A stretch of 29,302 nucleotides of DNA from a virus. A program made the position numbers and the translations under genes. The notes below the pieces were generated by a model. The model saw only the letters and a list, made by a program, of their open reading frames with translations. It ran no database searches and had not been told where the DNA came from. Below, piece by piece: positions 10,139 to 24,337 of this stretch. Position 1 is the stretch's first letter, and the number at the start of each line of letters is the position of its first letter. Location of the stretch: UHGV virus genome UHGV-0110803; one strand, 5' to 3'.

Positions 10139-11131
10139 TTACACCACGCGGGCTTCTGTTTCCAGAAGCGCATCAGTTTCACGGATTGGTACACCACGGA
10201 ATGACGTCCACCACTCGCCTTCAGTCTCTTTTACGCTAATCGCCAGAGATGTTTTCTCCAGAGACTGCAGATCAAGAGCCTGGCCTACAGTGCGGTTCAT
10301 GTAGAACACCGGGCGGCCCATGCCACGGTTTGGAATGCGATGCAGTGCTTTAACCATCAACTTCGCAATATTTGCGGCAGAGGAAGGTTCTGAAAGATTG
10401 CTGACATCGATGTTTGCAATGCGAACAACATAACGCCAGTCACGCAGAGCAAGTCCGTTATCCCATTTGTAATGGGTGCGATAGCCTTCGTACTTGCCGC
10501 CATTAGCATCTTCCAGTGTCACCTGGCCTTTATCTTCCATCTGGATGCCAGCCTTCTGCCCTTTCGGGAAGATGCCATGCACGGTGTTTTCGCCCCACAC
10601 CACTAACCAGATTGAGGTGTTATCTGTACCCGTGCCACCAGCATCAATGATGTTCTGAGCATTACCCGCAGACAGGCTGGAATAGCGGGAGGACAGTCCC
10701 ATAAACTGCTGAGGGTTAACGCTGGAATCACCATAAAACAGCGTCTGCGCCATCTGCTGATTCATCGCTTCAATAAATGCGCGGTCTTCAGACAGGCGGA
10801 ATTCGGCGGTATTGCCGTTCAGATCAGCCAGTGACTTATCGACTTCCGCATAGGTTTCCAGCATGCCAACGGAATCGGTTACCTGCACTGTGGTTGATTT
10901 GCTTGGCTGTACGCCATAGTTCAGCAAACGCCAGGTAGCTGAAGGTAAACCAGAACGAATGGTGGTTCGGTGTCCGGTAGGAAGGTTCCCTTCGACAAAA
11001 GGCATATCCTGAAGGATCGGGTTAGTTTGACCGAGAAGCTCGATAATCTTATCGACTTTCCCGTTTGGATCGACGCGCTTACCCCAGTCAGCCAGCGTTA
11101 GCGCAGTTAAGCCTTTAACAGACATTGTCAT
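10139..11131 (-). CDS. Major capsid protein (330 aa)
   Basis: Size and position after the scaffold gene; stem-loop immediately downstream. Confidence 0.65.
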   Translation of the reverse strand: MTMSVKGLTALTLADWGKRVDPNGKVDKIIELLGQTNPILQDMPFVEGNLPTGHRTTIRSGLPSATWRLLNYGVQPSKSTTVQVTDSVGMLETYAEVDKSLADLNGNTAEFRLSEDRAFIEAMNQQMAQTLFYGDSSVNPQQFMGLSSRYSSLSAGNAQNIIDAGGTGTDNTSIWLVVWGENTVHGIFPKGQKAGIQMEDKGQVTLEDANGGKYEGYRTHYKWDNGLALRDWRYVVRIANIDVSNLSEPSSAANIAKLMVKALHRIPNRGMGRPVFYMNRTVGQALDLQSLEKTSLAISVKETEGEWWTSFRGVPIRETDALLETEARVV

Positions 11132-11841: not shown

Positions 11842-12134
11842 TCCTGTTCACTGGCCTCTTTGGCCATCTTCAAATACTGTTCAGGGCAATGCGCCATAAC
11901 GCGCTGAAACAGTTCCAGCGCCAGATTGCGTTGCCCCTCATTAAATGCCATTGCCATAGCATCCATCGGAGAGATAGCGGAAAACACACGGCCTTTCTCC
12001 AGCACCGACCAGACAACGCGACGCCCCTGTTCACTGCTCATGACAAAGCGAATGTCATCAATTTCACGCTGTGCCATGTCACGTTGCTTACGGGCGTTTT
12101 CTTCTTTCAGTTGATCGTCTTCGTAATCTGTCAT
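11838..12134 (-). CDS. Hypothetical head-assembly protein (98 aa)
   Basis: 4-nt overlaps with portal and scaffold genes indicate coupled translation. Confidence 0.45.
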   Translation of the reverse strand: MTDYEDDQLKEENARKQRDMAQREIDDIRFVMSSEQGRRVVWSVLEKGRVFSAISPMDAMAMAFNEGQRNLALELFQRVMAHCPEQYLKMAKEASEQE

Positions 12135-13810
12135 TGTGATTGCCCACCCTGACCACTAACTGCATTCGCCATAGCTGACAACACACTCGGATCCGAAGTT
12201 TTAGCTTCACTTAGCGTCTTGACACCCTGTGCCGCCGCCATCCCCATCGCCATCATTTGTTGCTGCTGTTGCTGCTGTGCCCGTTGCTGGCGAGCCTGCT
12301 CAACCTGTTCCTGCGGAACAATGACGGTTGGAGACACTCCGGACATATCAGCGAATGCATCGATCGCCTGATCAACGTTGAGTTTGTCGAGAGCTTCTGG
12401 TTTCGCTTGCGCAAGTTGACCAATGAAGTTAACCGTGGACGCCAGACTGGACAGGCCGATAGACTTCTGCGCCTGAGCCATGACGGAAATGTATTCGACC
12501 TTCAGGGGCATGCCTTCCATCGCGTCAGGCGGTGGCGGCAGCATGTTTTTACGCACCATCATCGAGAAAGCGCGGTCAATGAGAGGATTAAGACATTCGT
12601 CGTTCAGACGCTCCAGAACCGGCCCCAACATCAGAAGTTTTTCTTCTTTCATTTCGATCACCGCTTCAACAGGCATCGAGCGGGTATTGATGTTCTGCAA
12701 CATCATGAACAGATCGACAAAGTAGGCGCTGTTAATGATTTGACGAGTGTCCTGAATGTCTGCCACCAAATCTGCTGTACTGGGGTTAACCAGATAAGCA
12801 GGCCTGAATCCATCCTGACCAGTAATCTGATCGATATACGTGATGTCGCCAGGAAGAAGGGAGGCGCGCTGATTCTTGAGGGAAGTCGGAGCAACCATCG
12901 GCGGATTGGTGGCTTTATCAATCAACTGCGACTTGCGCTTCTGGAGAAGCTGCAATGCCTTAACAGGTCCAAGCGCCAGCATACCCGGGCATGATGATCC
13001 ATAAACATCTTCGCCATTAACTTCCCAGCGCGGAGCCATAATTGGAAACTCATCGAATCCGGACTCACGCAACAACTTGTCGTTATCACCGCCAACCTCG
13101 TAATAAACCGATTTGAATGGCTTGTTCTTGCTATCCAGCTTCGATGTATCGCGGTCAATGTTCGGGTAAACCGAATGCATCACTTCAATCCACTTCTCGT
13201 AGGTGCCGCTTTCCCACATGCTTTTTACGGATTCGCTGACGTTATTTAGCCCGAACTCCTGAACAAGCTGACGAACGGTCATAGAGAACTTGCGAAAACA
13301 GGTGTCCACACTGCCACGAGGTGAGTTAGCCAGGTAGTAACTGCCTATCGGGAATGGCATTGTGCGAATGATGTCCTCGTCATCCTCCAGTACCGCCATT
13401 GCACCGGTGCTGTATGTGCCGAGGCTTCCGTATAACTGCGGAAGAGACTGGTAGAGATTCGACTTATTGAACATATCGTTCATGCGGTTCTGCACCGCCT
13501 CAAGCCACAACTTAACAGGGCCATAATCCATCATTTCAGGATCTGGCGTAGCCAGGCGAAACCACGGACGCGCGGGGCTTGTGATGCCTGACATCATGCC
13601 GCTGGCGAGAGTGCGCGCCGCCATAGTCCCGGTCGAATCAATAATGCGTGTATTGCGTCGATCGTTACGGTTGACCTCAGAAGTCAGAAAGCGGGAACCA
13701 CGTGGGTTGATGTAATCACTCAACTCGCGCCAGTGCGGCTCGAACGACTGACGCTCGCTTTCAAGTTGTGCGAACTGTTTGTTCAATCGCTCTTTAGTTG
13801 TTTCCGCCAT
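12131..13810 (-). CDS. Portal (head-to-tail connector) protein, 559 aa
   Basis: Size, position after terminase, and a Gln/Ala/Met-rich C-terminal tail (QQRAQQQQQQQMMAMGMAAAQG) like podovirus connector proteins; GGAG RBS. Confidence 0.7.
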   Translation of the reverse strand: MAETTKERLNKQFAQLESERQSFEPHWRELSDYINPRGSRFLTSEVNRNDRRNTRIIDSTGTMAARTLASGMMSGITSPARPWFRLATPDPEMMDYGPVKLWLEAVQNRMNDMFNKSNLYQSLPQLYGSLGTYSTGAMAVLEDDEDIIRTMPFPIGSYYLANSPRGSVDTCFRKFSMTVRQLVQEFGLNNVSESVKSMWESGTYEKWIEVMHSVYPNIDRDTSKLDSKNKPFKSVYYEVGGDNDKLLRESGFDEFPIMAPRWEVNGEDVYGSSCPGMLALGPVKALQLLQKRKSQLIDKATNPPMVAPTSLKNQRASLLPGDITYIDQITGQDGFRPAYLVNPSTADLVADIQDTRQIINSAYFVDLFMMLQNINTRSMPVEAVIEMKEEKLLMLGPVLERLNDECLNPLIDRAFSMMVRKNMLPPPPDAMEGMPLKVEYISVMAQAQKSIGLSSLASTVNFIGQLAQAKPEALDKLNVDQAIDAFADMSGVSPTVIVPQEQVEQARQQRAQQQQQQQMMAMGMAAAQGVKTLSEAKTSDPSVLSAMANAVSGQGGQSQ

Positions 13811-13824
13811 TTCAATGACTCCGG

Positions 13825-14031
13825 TTACTGACCAAGCAGCGTTTTACCGCTGGTCTTAGCGGTTGATGTGTCGCCCTGAGAACCGGTAAGCAGCGTAGAA
13901 CTACGACCAGCAGCAGCGCGACGGCGACGAGTTTCTTCGTCGCGGGCATCAACAACGGCGGCATCCTGCTCCTGTGGTGCTGCCTGAACTTCTGGTGTTG
14001 CAGGCACTGATGGTGAGCTACCCATGCACAT
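13825..14031 (-). CDS. Small hypothetical protein (68 aa) upstream of portal
   Basis: Start context CGGAGTCATTGATATG nearly identical to the portal start context CGGAGTCATTGAAATG. Confidence 0.4.
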   Translation of the reverse strand: MCMGSSPSVPATPEVQAAPQEQDAAVVDARDEETRRRRAAAGRSSTLLTGSQGDTSTAKTSGKTLLGQ

Positions 14032-14099
14032 ATCAATGACTCCGTACGCAATTAAATTATTACCAATTTAACCACATATGATTTATTTATCGTAGGCAG

Positions 14100-14136
14100 T
14101 TGACATTTAATGCGCGAATTATTACCTTTGAGGTAA
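14100..14136 (+). promoter_or_regulatory. Putative promoter region for the tRNA/moron cassette: TTGACA, AATTAT, then palindrome TTACCTTTGAGGTAA (14122-14136)
   Basis: TTGACA at 14100-14105; the decamer AATTATTACC is shared with the pL-like promoter; the -35 to -10 spacing is suboptimal (11 bp). Confidence 0.4.
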
Positions 14137-14458
14137 CCAAAGAGTTCATTCCGGTTACTAACATGACTGGCTTGTCGTTAAATTGAACAGGTGGAGTGAG
14201 CTTTTATTTTGAGCAGTACGGCGTATGGCACATGCGCCGATAGCGGTCTGGATACGTTTAAGGGGCACCCTCCCTTGCTCGGGCAAACGAACCAGGTAGC
14301 CGGAATGTGCAAGTCGAGCGGTTTTATTCCGCGCACGGGGATTCACCATCCCGGCGATTCGGTGTGACGCCTCGGAAGAGACGAGGGTACAACGATGAGA
14401 GCATTTATGGAGCCGCGACAAAGTGTGGCGCCTTAACAGGCTAAGTGCTCTCAGCGTT

Positions 14459-14535
14459 GTGGCATTAGCTCAGTTGGACAGAGCAACCGCCTTCTAAGCG
14501 GTTGGTCGCAGGTTCGAATCCTGCATGCCACGCCA
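14459..14535 (+). tRNA. tRNA-Arg (anticodon UCU), CCA encoded
   Basis: Cloverleaf folded by hand: acceptor GTGGCAT/ATGCCAC, D-stem GCTC/GAGC, anticodon stem ACCGC/GCGGT with loop CTTCTAA, T-arm GCAGG-TTCGAAT-CCTGC, discriminator G, CCA. Confidence 0.85.
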
Positions 14536-14578
14536 GAATCACGCCTAAGGACCGTGATGCCAGAAGTTCCAGGTGCTT

Positions 14579-14620
14579 GGCGGTGATGGTTTCCCTTGAA
14601 GGACTATCACCGCCCTTTTT
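14579..14620 (+). terminator. Hairpin plus T-tract 3' of the tRNA (GGCGGTGAT ... ATCACCGCC CTTTTT)
   Basis: 9-bp perfect stem followed by a T-run; functional on the plus strand only. Confidence 0.45.
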
Positions 14621-14698
14621 ACAGCAGGACGCCATTGCGATGACTTCATGCTGTAAACCAGTACAGCCACGGAAGGCAGAACTCATTGCTTCCAGTTC

Positions 14699-14723
14699 GC
14701 CCGGTTCGTCCGGGCATTTTTTT
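14699..14723 (+). terminator. Intrinsic terminator-like hairpin GCCCGG-TTCGT-CCGGGC followed by ATTTTTTT, immediately upstream of the RBS of the 139-aa ORF
   Basis: GC stem plus 7-T run; RBS AAGGTGA follows directly. Confidence 0.5.
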
Positions 14724-14734
14724 AAGGTGAGATT

Positions 14735-15154
14735 ATGAAGACAATTGATATGTTGGCTAAGTATCTAAATGAATGGCCATTAAAATATTCTCGTATCGTT
14801 CAGGCTGAAGACTGCGTTTTTTATGGCGTTTTTGCTGGTAATGAAATGCATTACGAAGTAATTCAGAGTGAGGGACTGGCCGGGTTAACTCTTAGCGAAG
14901 ACCATGGTACTAGCGTTACGTTCCATGACTGGATAACAGCACAACGTTCTGAAATGGAAAAAGGCGATATGTTTGATATTTCTCGCGCTGTTTACGCTAA
15001 AGCAAAAAGTGATCATGATTACATGAGCGAACACTTATACAACATGAAGTTACAATGCCTGCATGCGGCGCTTATTCAGAATGGGCACTTCGATAAAACA
15101 AGTGCCATCAATATTGCGGAAGCCATCAACGCTGGATTTAATGCCATTAAGTAA
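14735..15154 (+). CDS. Orphan moron protein, 139 aa, no recognisable domain
   Basis: AAGGTGA RBS; visibly AT-rich relative to flanking genes; opposite strand to the surrounding late operon; own terminator. Confidence 0.6.
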   Translation: MKTIDMLAKYLNEWPLKYSRIVQAEDCVFYGVFAGNEMHYEVIQSEGLAGLTLSEDHGTSVTFHDWITAQRSEMEKGDMFDISRAVYAKAKSDHDYMSEHLYNMKLQCLHAALIQNGHFDKTSAINIAEAINAGFNAIK

Positions 15155-15158
15155 CACC

Positions 15159-15170
15159 GTGACATGTCAC
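15159..15170. repeat. Perfect 12-bp palindrome GTGACATGTCAC, copy A
   Basis: Identical 12-mer recurs at 17610-17621 with similar flanks (AACACC upstream). Confidence 0.8.
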
Positions 15171-15174
15171 AAAC

Positions 15175-15203
15175 AGCCAGCCGATGAGCTGGCTTTGTTT
15201 TAT
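15175..15203 (+). terminator. Intrinsic terminator of the moron cassette (AGCCAGC-CGATGA-GCTGGCT then TTGTTTTAT)
   Basis: 7-bp stem plus T-tract on the plus strand; no U-tract on the minus strand. Confidence 0.6.
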
Positions 15204-15244: not shown

Positions 15245-16720
15245 TTAAGCATATGGATCGTAATCTGTGATGGCCTTGCCTTGCTGGTTCTGCTGCCCGG
15301 GAATTCGCAGACGCTTCGACACAGGGAACGCAAACGTCAGCAGTAGCGCATCGCCTTTACCAGGAGAACGCCCAAGCCGCTCCTTGATATCTTCCTTCGG
15401 TTCGATAACGATTTTACCGTCCACTCGAACTTTGTACTCTGCCGCCGACAGGTCGTCCGCTGTTTCCTGGTCATCAAGCATGCCGCCCAGCCTCAGCCAC
15501 GTCTTGCATGAGTTGAACATCTCCCCGCGCTTATTGAGCATCTGCGGGTCAGTAGACGCGCCACCGAACGGAACAAGTTGCCATGTACGACCCCAGCCGT
15601 CACCGATTGACTTCAGACCAGTTCCGTAACCGAAGTCGATGAACACCGCGTCAGCCTGATACTGGTCTTCAAAGTCAGCGATACGCTTTGCCATAATCAG
15701 ATCGTCAGTGGTCTTGTTGCCGGTCCACAGCACCTTACTGTGCAGCCCCTGCCGCAGGTATATCACCGCATCATCAACGCCTGAGTATGCCGGGTCAACG
15801 CCGATTATCACCGGAGCATGTGCAACCTGCGCAGCGGTGACCACCCGTTTCATTGCCTCGTCAGTAAGTCCGGTAGGGATAAACTGCAATTCAGATGCAT
15901 CCGGGAATATGCCGCGCACACGGATTTTAACGAAGTCGCTGTCTTCCCCGTAGTCATCAACCCATTTCTGCAACTGCTGTTTGTTAGTGCCTTCCACCGT
16001 CCGGCTGTCAATCTGCGCAGTTTTCCAGCGGTGTTTATATTTGCGGAAACATTCGCGGAAACGTCCGGTATTACGCGTCGGGTTTCCGAACGCCACCCAG
16101 ATAATCTCAGTGTCTTCGTCCGTTAGCGCACCCTCGGCAACTTCCCACACCAGATCCGCAATGTTCGACGCTTCATCGAATACCACGATGATGCGTTTGC
16201 GCTCGTTGTGTAGTCCGGCGAATGCCTCAGTGTTGTGCTCAGACCAGGGGATTGCGTCAGCTCGCCACCGCTTGTCGTGCCCAGGATCATTGCTGTACAT
16301 CGCGGTAGCGGTACAGGTAAACCAGTCTTTCGTGATAGCAAGGTTCGACCACTTGATAATTTCCGGCCAAGTCTTCGTTCGTAGCTGGTTGTCGGTGTTG
16401 GCGGTCACCACGACCTTACAATCCTCGCAAGTGGACATGCCCCAGTTGATCAGCATTGAGATGAATGCGGATTTACCAATACCGTGACCAGAAGCGCGTG
16501 CCAGCATAAGCGGCTGATAGCGCGTCTCTGGATTCTGCAGGTGATCACGTATCTCTCGGAACGCATCGGCCTGCCACTGACGTGGACCGGTGGCATGTGC
16601 CAGTTCAGTCCCCTCTTCCCCCCACGGGAACGCATAGAGGGCATAACCAAGCGGATCGTGAGTGAACCCTGCAATATCCTCGATCAACTGCTCTTCAGGA
16701 GATAACGCTGTATCTGTCAC
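15245..16720 (-). CDS. terL: Terminase large subunit (491 aa)
   Basis: Walker A-like SGHGIGKS, ATPase then nuclease-domain layout, 4-nt overlap with the small-subunit gene. Confidence 0.85.
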   Translation of the reverse strand: MTDTALSPEEQLIEDIAGFTHDPLGYALYAFPWGEEGTELAHATGPRQWQADAFREIRDHLQNPETRYQPLMLARASGHGIGKSAFISMLINWGMSTCEDCKVVVTANTDNQLRTKTWPEIIKWSNLAITKDWFTCTATAMYSNDPGHDKRWRADAIPWSEHNTEAFAGLHNERKRIIVVFDEASNIADLVWEVAEGALTDEDTEIIWVAFGNPTRNTGRFRECFRKYKHRWKTAQIDSRTVEGTNKQQLQKWVDDYGEDSDFVKIRVRGIFPDASELQFIPTGLTDEAMKRVVTAAQVAHAPVIIGVDPAYSGVDDAVIYLRQGLHSKVLWTGNKTTDDLIMAKRIADFEDQYQADAVFIDFGYGTGLKSIGDGWGRTWQLVPFGGASTDPQMLNKRGEMFNSCKTWLRLGGMLDDQETADDLSAAEYKVRVDGKIVIEPKEDIKERLGRSPGKGDALLLTFAFPVSKRLRIPGQQNQQGKAITDYDPYA

Positions 16721-23618: not shown

Positions 23619-24203
23619 ATGAAAAGTATCCAGGACGTCCGCAGGCAAAATCTCAACGACTTGATCGACCGTGAATTCAATGGTGTTCAGACGCGGATGG
23701 CAGAAAAACTTGGAACTCAGGCAAATCTGGTAAACCGCTGGGCTCTTGGCAAGAAGGTTATCGGCGACCAGGTTGCGCGAAAAATTGAAGCTGCCGCCAA
23801 TAAACCACGTAACTGGCTTGATATCGATCGCTCGCTTTCTCAGGAAGGTTTTCAGCCTGTCGGCCCAAGCGACATTGGTCAGCTGGCGGCTCACAACCTG
23901 GAACGCTGGATGAGCGAAAGCCGCGACCTTTCAACTCAGGGAAAACTTCACCGCGCATCCGGCGTCGCCCAGGTGACAATCAGCCGCCTGTTAAACAATG
24001 AGGTCAGCGTTTCCATTTCCACCCTGGAGAATGTTGCATCCGCATTCGGGCGTCACGGCTATGAATTACTGATTCACCCGCACGACCCTGCGACCATCAA
24101 CTATGACCGCTCGCGCTACGCATTGTTACCCGAAACCGAGAAAGCAAAGATCGAAAGTTACATTGAATTTGTCATCAACCAGAACGAAAAAAACAAACAA
24201 TAA
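23619..24203 (+). CDS. Prophage repressor candidate with two HTH motifs and no peptidase domain (194 aa)
   Basis: Two XRE-type HTH segments (QTRMAEKLGTQANLVNRW and ASGVAQVTISRLLNN); no Ala-Gly/Ser-Lys autocleavage signature seen. Confidence 0.6.
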   Translation: MKSIQDVRRQNLNDLIDREFNGVQTRMAEKLGTQANLVNRWALGKKVIGDQVARKIEAAANKPRNWLDIDRSLSQEGFQPVGPSDIGQLAAHNLERWMSESRDLSTQGKLHRASGVAQVTISRLLNNEVSVSISTLENVASAFGRHGYELLIHPHDPATINYDRSRYALLPETEKAKIESYIEFVINQNEKNKQ

Positions 24204-24260: not shown

Positions 24261-24337
24261 TTACCTAATAGGTAATTTTCTTAACTCATATCTATTGACA
24301 TCAAACCAAATACGCATAATTATTACCTCAACGGTAA
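24261..24337 (+). promoter_or_regulatory. pL-like promoter: palindrome TTACCTAATAGGTAA (24261-24275), -35 TTGACA (24295-24300), 17-bp spacer, -10 AATTAT fused to TTACCTCAACGGTAA (24323-24337)
   Basis: Consensus -35; two perfect palindromes 62 bp apart centre to centre. Confidence 0.6.

Follow-up and report, generated by a model that had tools for sequence, protein, structure and literature searches.

In the virus genome UHGV-0110803, which was analysed as one stretch of 29,302 nucleotides (nt; hereafter called the window, with positions counted from its first letter), the region 14100-15203 is a conserved plus-strand expression platform of Uetakeviruses that lies antisense between the terL gene and the genes for a gp3-like protein and the portal. 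Read along the plus strand, the unit comprises a promoter with an operator, a leader RNA, a tRNA-Arg(UCU), two intrinsic terminators, an open reading frame (ORF) of 139 amino acids (aa) and a third terminator. An earlier note, made from the letters alone, had described this region as an AT-rich accessory cassette and had regarded the 139-aa protein as the best candidate for an undescribed function. The tRNA, the terminators, the ORF with its ribosome-binding site and the palindrome were all found at the coordinates given in that note, and an autonomous plus-strand unit, as it had been claimed, was affirmed by the unit's own promoter and terminators. Neither the tRNA nor the notion of an accessory slot is out of the ordinary. 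What is most unusual in the cassette, and also best conserved, is the leader RNA, which the note had passed over, and it is this RNA rather than the protein that merits the follow-up. It is a structured molecule of ~245 nt (~14215-14458) and appears to represent an RNA family undescribed so far. Its parts are as follows:

14137-14214, plus strand: 5′ leader before the RNA core, with the partly conserved sequences GGCTTGTCGTTAAAT and GGTGGAGTGAGCTTT, found by comparing upstream sequences across loci
14215-14396, plus strand: leader RNA core (covariance model R1, 144.6 bits, E value 2e-41)
14219-14224/14234-14239, plus strand: helix P1 of the core
14247-14250/14293-14296, plus strand: helix P2, enclosing variable hairpins
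14295-14313, plus strand: invariant segment GGUAGCCGGAAUGUGCAAG of the core, followed by a variable hairpin
around 14335-14361, plus strand: helix P5 and pseudoknot PK2 of the core
14367-14383, plus strand: helix P6 of the core, CCUCG-GAAGAGA-CGAGG
14388-14459, plus strand: P7, a long closing helix, CAACGAUGAGAGCAUU ... AAGUGCUCUCAGCGUUG, with a variable insert, supported by a partner-swap permutation test

The structure was tested on an alignment (A3) of 46 leader-RNA members with mutual identities below 92%, on which 32 pairs belonging to seven helices, two of them pseudoknots, were scored. Standard pairs were formed in 96.5% of the pair cells, as compared to 26-50% when the partners were slid by 1-3 columns. 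Both sides had changed in 15 of the 32 pairs, and double changes were counted in 141 cells versus 10-33 with slid partners; not one of the observed measures was reached in 500 shuffles. The covariation of P1, P2, P2b and P5 was replicated in an independent metagenome set; its members had been picked via an anchor at the opposite side of the RNA, and the covariance model served to align them. For P7, the mean duplex free energy (dG) was -22.5 with the strand's own partner and -17.9 with swapped partners, none of 2000 permutations being as good, and compensatory variants of this helix were seen as well. The leader RNA contains one covariation-supported pseudoknot. A second one, PK1, in which the P1 loop (GCACAU) pairs with AUGUGC (14305-14310), is proposed. 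Both of its strands are invariant, even where the search pattern had left them free, and AUGCGC in three sequences is uncompensated. Pairing of this loop either within P1 or with AUGUGC would yield two mutually exclusive folds. Among the single-stranded parts, CCGGAAUGUGCAAG was kept in 85 of 89 metagenome variants in a segment which the search pattern did not constrain, while the 3′ domain of the RNA differs among members.

The RNA is encoded by the plus strand, because many of its G-U pairs would turn into C-A mismatches if the other strand were transcribed; the orientation of the element agrees with that of the tRNA, cI or ban gene in all contexts. A conserved reading frame over the element was ruled out for either strand by the lengths of the indels, and for the minus strand also by the G-U pairs. 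The final G of P7 is at the same time nucleotide 1 of the tRNA-Arg. Since RNase P matures the 5′ ends of tRNAs, its cut at 14458/14459 presumably separates the leader RNA from the tRNA. Some known motifs were considered and rejected. A hammerhead core was ruled out, as GAUGAG in P7 varies, and the same decision was reached for a topology like that of hepatitis delta virus RNA and for loops like those of the signal recognition particle RNA. With the ops site of RfaH only GGTAGC is in common, the upstream bases covarying as P2. The 3′ strand of P7 (14438-14459 and its equivalents elsewhere) often reads GUGCUCUUU(C)CGUUGUGGUG and looks like an rrn boxA (UGCUCUUUAACAA) followed by a G/U-rich, boxC-like stretch; the boxA identity of GUGCUCUUU is probably a coincidence, as this strand covaries with its partner.

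Searches with the leader alone disclosed matches of 70-83% identity in unrelated phages, namely the lambdoid phages cdtI, mEp460, Ayreon and 2H10 together with Stx2c, Stx2a and Stx2k phages, P7 and further P1-like phages, Klebsiella phages, Enterobacter phages and one Stenotrophomonas phage. The invariant 19-mer GGTAGCCGGAATGTGCAAG was detected in 23 species-representative genomes, nearly all of them Enterobacteriaceae (one chance match excluded), and in at least 120 viral contigs among the matches listed. A BLAST search located the element in 1,840 of 5,426 complete E. coli genomes, 554 of its places being on plasmids. RefSeq does not annotate it in any of the complete E. coli genomes. Rfam 15 (4227 models) gave no match over 14137-14458 even at E values up to 10, nor did it match the element of five further loci at E values up to 0.5. 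The RNA was also not found in the searchable literature, literal sequence strings included, a comparison that was made without the central publication (2011) on new antiterminator RNAs of phages.

Some members of the collection need a comment. The excluded match of the 19-mer (L019, Oscillospiraceae) was due to chance, all other helices being missing. A complete element on a 1.7-kb contig (L031) was assigned to a metagenome-assembled genome of Bacillota, which is probably a misbinning. Phage epsilon15 possesses a 78-nt remnant of the RNA (L002 3044-3121, 35.9 bits) and no tRNA, and has kept the spacer, terminator 2 and a PF13876 cargo gene; the repressor, IHF and RNase III sites predicted in its record lie upstream of the remnant. 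In the Stenotrophomonas phage BUCT708 a sub-threshold RprA-like match (L007 2631-2750; 50 bits versus a gathering threshold of 70, E value 0.001) lies directly 3′ of the RNA core; it may merely reflect a terminator hairpin. Hypothetical proteins have been called over the tRNA or leader at L001 2166-2417 (phiV10p04), L004 2443-2811 (mEp460_037), L279-L281 2439-2915, L282 4061-4180 and L283 3926-4303. No reading frame is conserved there, and these calls are probably artefacts.

In the lambdoid phages mEp460, Stx2c, Stx2a_1447, Ayreon and phiSTEC1575-Stx2k, and likewise in many prophages, one finds in succession a cI-type repressor gene (HTH_3 and Peptidase_S24), its terminator, the operators and promoter, the element and then the early-left genes on the same strand. 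The place of the element is taken by nutL in lambda and by putL in HK022, and the Ayreon record independently annotates a promoter directly 5′ of it. An N gene is not annotated in the records of mEp460, Ayreon and phiSTEC1575-Stx2k, an absence that is by itself weak evidence, and the first early-left ORF of mEp460 had no Pfam match. In P7 the element follows a tRNA within the C1-controlled ban operon, and in Uetake-like phages it follows the operator-bearing promoter. All contexts have in common that the element, in sense orientation, belongs to the 5′ part of an operon which is presumably under direct control of the immunity repressor. There is one copy of the element per genome. Terminator-like hairpins were identified 3′ of the element in 30 of the 46 loci.

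In two of these contexts, further RNA matches were noted. In the P7 ban operon (L005 1352-1436 and 1549-1664), ARAGORN found a tRNA-Ser(UGA)-like gene which the P7 record does not annotate; at the same place Rfam gave a near-threshold tRNA-Sec-like match (46.6 versus 47) and beside it an STnc100 match (43 versus 47). In mEp460 (L004 206-394, minus strand of the locus), a C4 antisense RNA (206-293, 83.6 bits) and an isrK RNA (67 bits) are situated inside or adjoining the Rha/antirepressor gene, and this C4/isrK pair suggests that a lambdoid phage has an RNA immunity module like that of P1.

In the window, the sequences that may control the transcription of the leader were identified directly upstream of it:

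14100-14105 and 14123-14128, plus strand: sigma-70-type promoter with a strong -35, TTGACA and TACCTT with a 17-nt spacer, read from the sequence
14122-14136, no strand: operator palindrome TTACCTTTGAGGTAA, covering the -10 region of the promoter
14122, 17313, 17331, 21156, 21218, 23164, 23501, 23549, 24261 and 24323: the ten operator copies of the pattern TTACC-N5-GGTAA

The promoter pattern TTGACA/TTGACC-N17-TACC(T/C)T is kept in 12 Uetake-like loci of other genera (L008, L016, L021, L022, L027, L030, L034, L059, L092, L099, L109 and L128). From the end of the -10 region to P1 the spacing varies, amounting to 6-7 nt in four loci and to 12-96 nt elsewhere. Transcription of the plus strand would start at ~14135-14137. 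For the minus strand, only poor -35 candidates were seen at the operator site, none of which was acceptable. With up to one mismatch, the operator pattern has ten copies in the window versus 0.52 expected, and none of 100 shuffles equalled this count. Pairs of copies flank a helix-turn-helix repressor gene (23619-24203), and the epsilon15 record labels the site equivalent to that at the promoter as a repressor binding site. Between two operator copies, there is also a PL-like promoter (TTGACA-N16-TAATTA, ~24297-24324). Two further copies (17313 and 17331) reside at the start of terS, which suggests that the packaging genes, too, may be directly repressor-controlled from there.

According to this arrangement, the repressor is predicted to shut the unit in the lysogen, and the unit would become active at the same time as the early genes, following infection or induction. 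Because the -10 region of the promoter lies inside the immunity-repressor operator, silence in the lysogen is predicted, and this counts against lysogenic conversion and against a classical moron expressed by the prophage. Such a role, which the earlier note had considered, is therefore disfavoured.

Downstream of the leader RNA, the following features were found, the three terminator-like hairpins by two methods:

14459-14535, plus strand: tRNA-Arg, anticodon UCU, reading AGA (ARAGORN and Rfam RF00005)
14579-14621, plus strand: terminator 1, hairpin 14579-14614 (14-bp stem, dG -22.0) with T-run
14622-14698, plus strand: conserved spacer between terminators 1 and 2, 73-83% identity among loci with different cargo
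14699-14723, plus strand: terminator 2, hairpin 14699-14715 (GCCCGG-UUCGU-CCGGGC, dG -11.6) followed by seven T
14735-15154, plus strand: 139-aa ORF, with the ribosome-binding site AAGGTGA at 14724-14730, 4 nt before the ATG
15175-15203, plus strand: terminator 3, hairpin 15175-15194 (dG -11.5), facing the convergent terL gene

The tRNA-Arg with the anticodon UCU was confirmed by both programs (RF00005, 73.3 bits versus a gathering threshold of 29; ARAGORN, anticodon tct at position 35), and its CCA end is encoded. The earlier note had stressed that it reads AGA. This is true for the anticodon, while the use of AGA in the window is only modest (4.4 per 1000 codons), the codon being absent from the 139-aa ORF, terL, the portal gene and a 330-aa ORF (10139-11131). 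A tRNA is found in only some of the related slots, and most family members have no adjacent one. The long hairpin equivalent to terminator 1 is kept in Uetake-like loci with or without a tRNA. In these slots it is followed, after ~85-125 nt, by a short GC hairpin with a T-run ~20 nt before the start codon of the cargo; in the window, the T-run of terminator 2 ends 1 nt before the ribosome-binding site. Where terminator 3 lies, a terminator is annotated in the phiV10 record. As to the region 14622-14723, the spacer ends in a stem (GGAAGGCA...UGCUUCC) to which terminator 2 is joined, a layout like that of the 3′ end of an Hfq-type small RNA. A weak RyhB-like match of the spacer 3′ end and terminator 2 (20 bits, E value 0.72, far below the gathering threshold) was the sole database signal. 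In phage PAS61, 30 nt of the spacer (14669-14698) are deleted.

The noncoding DNA at 14536-14734 shows 73-83% identity across loci, and the homology ends at ~14724-14734, at the ribosome-binding site. Since the noncoding part is conserved while the ORF behind it differs, the slot can be described from these alignments as a conserved noncoding platform with swappable cargo. In phiV10 and epsilon15 the slot gene belongs to a different family, PF13876. Other relatives carry a Tad2-like PF11195 gene, an HNH endonuclease gene (HNH_3) or genes for membrane and coiled-coil proteins or small membrane proteins; some slots contain two genes, and L092 is without any. The accessory cassette of the earlier note is borne out by this exchange of cargo. 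An anti-defence function, also suggested there, fits at the level of the slot, because the cargo of a Klebsiella relative has a Tad2-like Thoeris anti-defence domain (PF11195, 91.7 bits); the 139-aa ORF itself matched no anti-defence or defence model.

The ORF has a G+C content of 0.402, the lowest of 41 ORFs (mean 0.500, standard deviation 0.037, z = -2.67), and that of the promoter region is 0.347. The values of the leader RNA (0.574) and the tRNA (0.571) exceed that of the window (0.506). Thus, the AT-richness formerly ascribed to the cassette holds for the ORF and the promoter and not for the whole. The protein belongs to PHROG 4846, a small family of enterobacterial prophages with unknown function (E value 3.4e-88, residues 1-139 on profile positions 1-139 of 140). 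Homologous to the ORF are 103 clusters, all from Enterobacteriaceae, and an exhaustive profile search of 1.84 billion representatives yielded only 28 of these; one additional hit, a repetitive 2042-aa protein, was regarded as spurious. Wherever examined, the family is confined to this slot. Pfam, NCBIfam and PADLOC (E values up to 1) did not give any match, nor did a sequence profile search against PDB. The designation as an orphan is therefore appropriate with respect to Pfam, NCBIfam and PADLOC and inappropriate with respect to the PHROG family and the homologous clusters.

The protein is modular and consists of an N-terminal domain of ~90 aa and a C-terminal helical hairpin module (residues 93-137). 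This conserved module of ~45 residues has the consensus EHLYNMKLQCLHAALIQNG.FDKT.A.NIAEAINAGF.AIK, and in the 123-aa proteins that phage Tyrion and many prophages encode, it follows a different N-terminus. It was also seen with unrelated N-termini in P0012, P0072, P0092, P0098 and P0103 and stands nearly alone in the cargo of L015 (68 aa), and some homologues of 201-204 aa possess an added domain of ~60 residues (…FEEVTRPVIKWLAQNVHPHHSVIIDSTHAELLE…) without a Pfam match. In the AlphaFold model, the predicted local distance difference test score was 67 overall and 84-89 at the C-terminus, the C-terminal helical hairpin being confident and the rest poor. Foldseek searches against PDB and BFVD retrieved only the Tyrion protein sharing the C-terminal module.

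On the opposite strand, the unit is bordered by these genes, each identified by homology to the annotated genes of phiV10, epsilon15 and PAS61:

15245-16720, minus strand: terL
13825-14031, minus strand: gp3-like ORF
12131-13810, minus strand: portal gene

Judged by its sequence, the window is a Uetakevirus of the epsilon15/phiV10 group. Escherichia phage HEMP4 gave a match of 95% to the 1.5 kb around the cassette, over the full length, and phiV10, the O157 typing phages 9 and 10, ZX5, TL-2011b and PAS61 match most of the 1.5 kb; all of these phages are Uetakeviruses. The records of phiV10 and epsilon15 already show an ORF on the opposite strand at the equivalent slot, and that of epsilon15 also annotates predicted repressor, IHF, RNase III and terminator features.

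With some reserve, we prefer the interpretation that the leader is an antiterminator RNA comparable to put, acting in cis and gating the cargo, a reading which draws on the analogy with phage HK022. The promoter would open together with the early genes after infection or induction, and the transcript would begin with the ~245-nt structured RNA. While still nascent, this RNA would act in cis on the polymerase that made it, like HK022 put, so that only transcripts from this promoter would pass the terminators and the cargo would be expressed. In lambdoid phages, the same action of the RNA would lead to expression of the early-left operon. The put RNA acts in cis just downstream of PL and causes read-through of terminators (PMC9378689). 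The ORF can probably be expressed only by read-through, because the terminator ~20 nt before the cargo start leaves no room for a separate promoter. A terminator-resistant polymerase would explain the promoter-proximal position of the element, the terminators before the cargo or the lambdoid early genes and the lack of an annotated N gene alike. The occurrence of the element in a Stenotrophomonas phage fits a target that is conserved among Gammaproteobacteria, e.g., RNA polymerase.

Several points weigh against antitermination. The R1 model did not give any match at E values up to 10 in HK639 or in the 22-30 kb region of HK022, in which the put sites were not located, and an alignment with the annotated putL of HK639 was unconvincing. 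The leader is much longer than put (~245 nt versus ~70 nt). L092 keeps the RNA and three terminators without a cargo ORF, so that a gate acting in cis would express nothing, and epsilon15 keeps a terminator and cargo behind the 78-nt remnant of the RNA. In P7 the element is far from the promoter; putR, too, lies ~270 nt downstream of its promoter (PMC9378689). In the window, the leader is followed by the tRNA before the terminators are reached, and a cut by RNase P would sever the tether, though put activity has been reported to be independent of a tether (PMC9378689). Finally, the terminator scan found none in 16 of the 46 loci.

The main rival explanation is a stable non-coding RNA that would act in trans after having been freed by RNase P or the terminators. 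It would bind a host or phage factor, e.g., a nuclease, a defence protein or the machinery of translation or transcription, and both the tRNA and the cargo would merely be co-expressed. We consider this possible, if rather doubtful. Besides L092, where the RNA and the terminators stand without cargo, the direct contact to the tRNA speaks for it, as the element abuts the tRNA 3′ end in P7 and the tRNA 5′ end here, like small RNAs cut from tRNA precursors. The extreme conservation of single-stranded segments (CCGGAAUGUGCAAG) suggests a recognition surface, and the architecture is complex and pseudoknotted. An RNA acting in trans would, however, not require the strict sense position after early promoters and before operons that was seen in more than 30 independent contexts, and it is present as a single copy per genome with no target that could be named.

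That the 139-aa protein is the payload of a moron (exclusion, anti-defence or conversion), the leader being a long untranslated region with a tRNA, seems unlikely to us. The low G+C content of the ORF, its good ribosome-binding site, its own terminator, the confinement of its family to the slot and the swapping of cargo that includes the Tad2-like domain would suit this explanation. On the other hand, the leader is far more conserved and widespread than any cargo, exists without cargo and outside the Uetakeviruses, and has a structure under selection; moreover, the operator-controlled promoter makes expression in the prophage unlikely, and the protein searches gave no functional signal.

Quite improbable is a riboswitch-like sensor, in which a ligand-dependent fold of the leader would set the action of the terminators. 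Although a pseudoknotted 5′ leader RNA with invariant unpaired segments and the two alternative folds of the P1 loop, followed by terminators, would be expected of such a sensor, no known class in Rfam matches, the 3′ domain varies among members, the terminators are 120-240 nt past the core with a whole tRNA in between, and no expression platform overlaps the conserved core. We attach very little probability to an antisense timer, i.e., to a leader-modified polymerase that would pass all three terminators into terL and terS and thereby delay or damp early expression of the packaging genes, with the cargo being optional. The unit converges on terL 50 nt past terminator 3, the same-regulon operators precede terS, so that the early and late promoters may be active at the same time and some other means of timing may be required, and L092 manages without cargo; yet the idea is wholly speculative, three successive terminators argue for stopping transcription, and the lambdoid and P7 contexts are explained no better than by plain antitermination. 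A function of the minus strand, either an RNase III processing site in the late mRNA or a small protein, is the least probable explanation: the epsilon15 record has a predicted RNase III site in the intergenic region, minus-strand ORFs were called over the element in mEp460 (mEp460_037) and L279-L281, and 34 of the 46 cores have some open minus-strand frame, but the abundant G-U pairs exist on the plus strand only, the core lengths are spread over all residues modulo 3, among 429 internal gap runs 329 have lengths not divisible by three, a 4-nt indel lies within the core between the window and mEp460, and in lambdoid phages and P7 the minus strand belongs to no operon here.

Returning to antitermination by the leader, we put forward a wider proposal still more tentatively. 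The leader might be the first representative of a new class of antiterminators that act as nascent RNAs, or more broadly of phage RNAs that bind the polymerase or other host machinery; this class would replace N in a large group of N-less lambdoid phages and be used by P1/P7-like plasmid prophages and Uetakeviruses to gate tRNA and anti-defence cargo. Nowhere has non-coding RNA been sought more intensively than in E. coli and its phages, and yet a covarying RNA of 245 nt is unannotated in about a third of the complete genomes. Gene callers often put spurious ORFs over the element, and a covariance model would remove such calls. If the RNA is an antiterminator, it would explain the expression of the early-left operon in many lambdoid phages without N, a question that a Genome Research paper from 2025 raised for its own phage LLS (PMC12315714). 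It would also be a second, structurally unrelated example beside HK022 put, the only well-studied phage case. The portable module of promoter/operator, leader RNA, terminators and cargo marks a hot spot of accessory and anti-defence genes, which can be mined by a search for the RNA instead of for unpredictable proteins.

Compared with known systems, the unit resembles morons and anti-defence islands (e.g., those with Tad2, PF11195) in its own promoter and terminator, the deviant G+C content and the exchanged cargo. It differs from morons, which are constitutively active in the prophage, by a promoter that is predicted to be controlled by the immunity repressor and by cargo that is placed behind terminators and a conserved RNA platform. 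Small stable RNAs cut from phage tRNA transcripts include the species 1 and 2 RNAs of T4 and the c4 RNA of P1/P7, the latter being released by RNase P. Like the leader, they are structured phage RNAs directly abutting a tRNA; the C4 family is contained in Rfam and was matched elsewhere in mEp460 (L004 206-293), not at the element. The EAR RNA of Bacillus eps operons is a cis-acting leader RNA with a reported pseudoknot, which as a processive antiterminator causes terminators to be ignored in a long operon. It comes from a different phylum and has a different sequence, and it is in Rfam, which gave no match at the leader; it illustrates that an RNA-only antiterminator need not resemble put. The put RNAs of HK022 (putL, putR) and the putL-like RNA of HK639 are likewise structured sense RNAs just downstream of a repressor-controlled early promoter and ahead of terminators and early genes, and they belong to temperate coliphages without N. 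In contrast to the two stem-loops of put, the leader RNA has seven helices and a pseudoknot, and no homology was detected with HK639 or the 22-30 kb region of HK022; unlike put, it is present in one copy per genome and occurs also in the late region of a podovirus and in P1-like plasmids. The leader would therefore not be a member of the put family, while functionally it would belong to RNA-mediated antitermination or to the phage leader RNAs.

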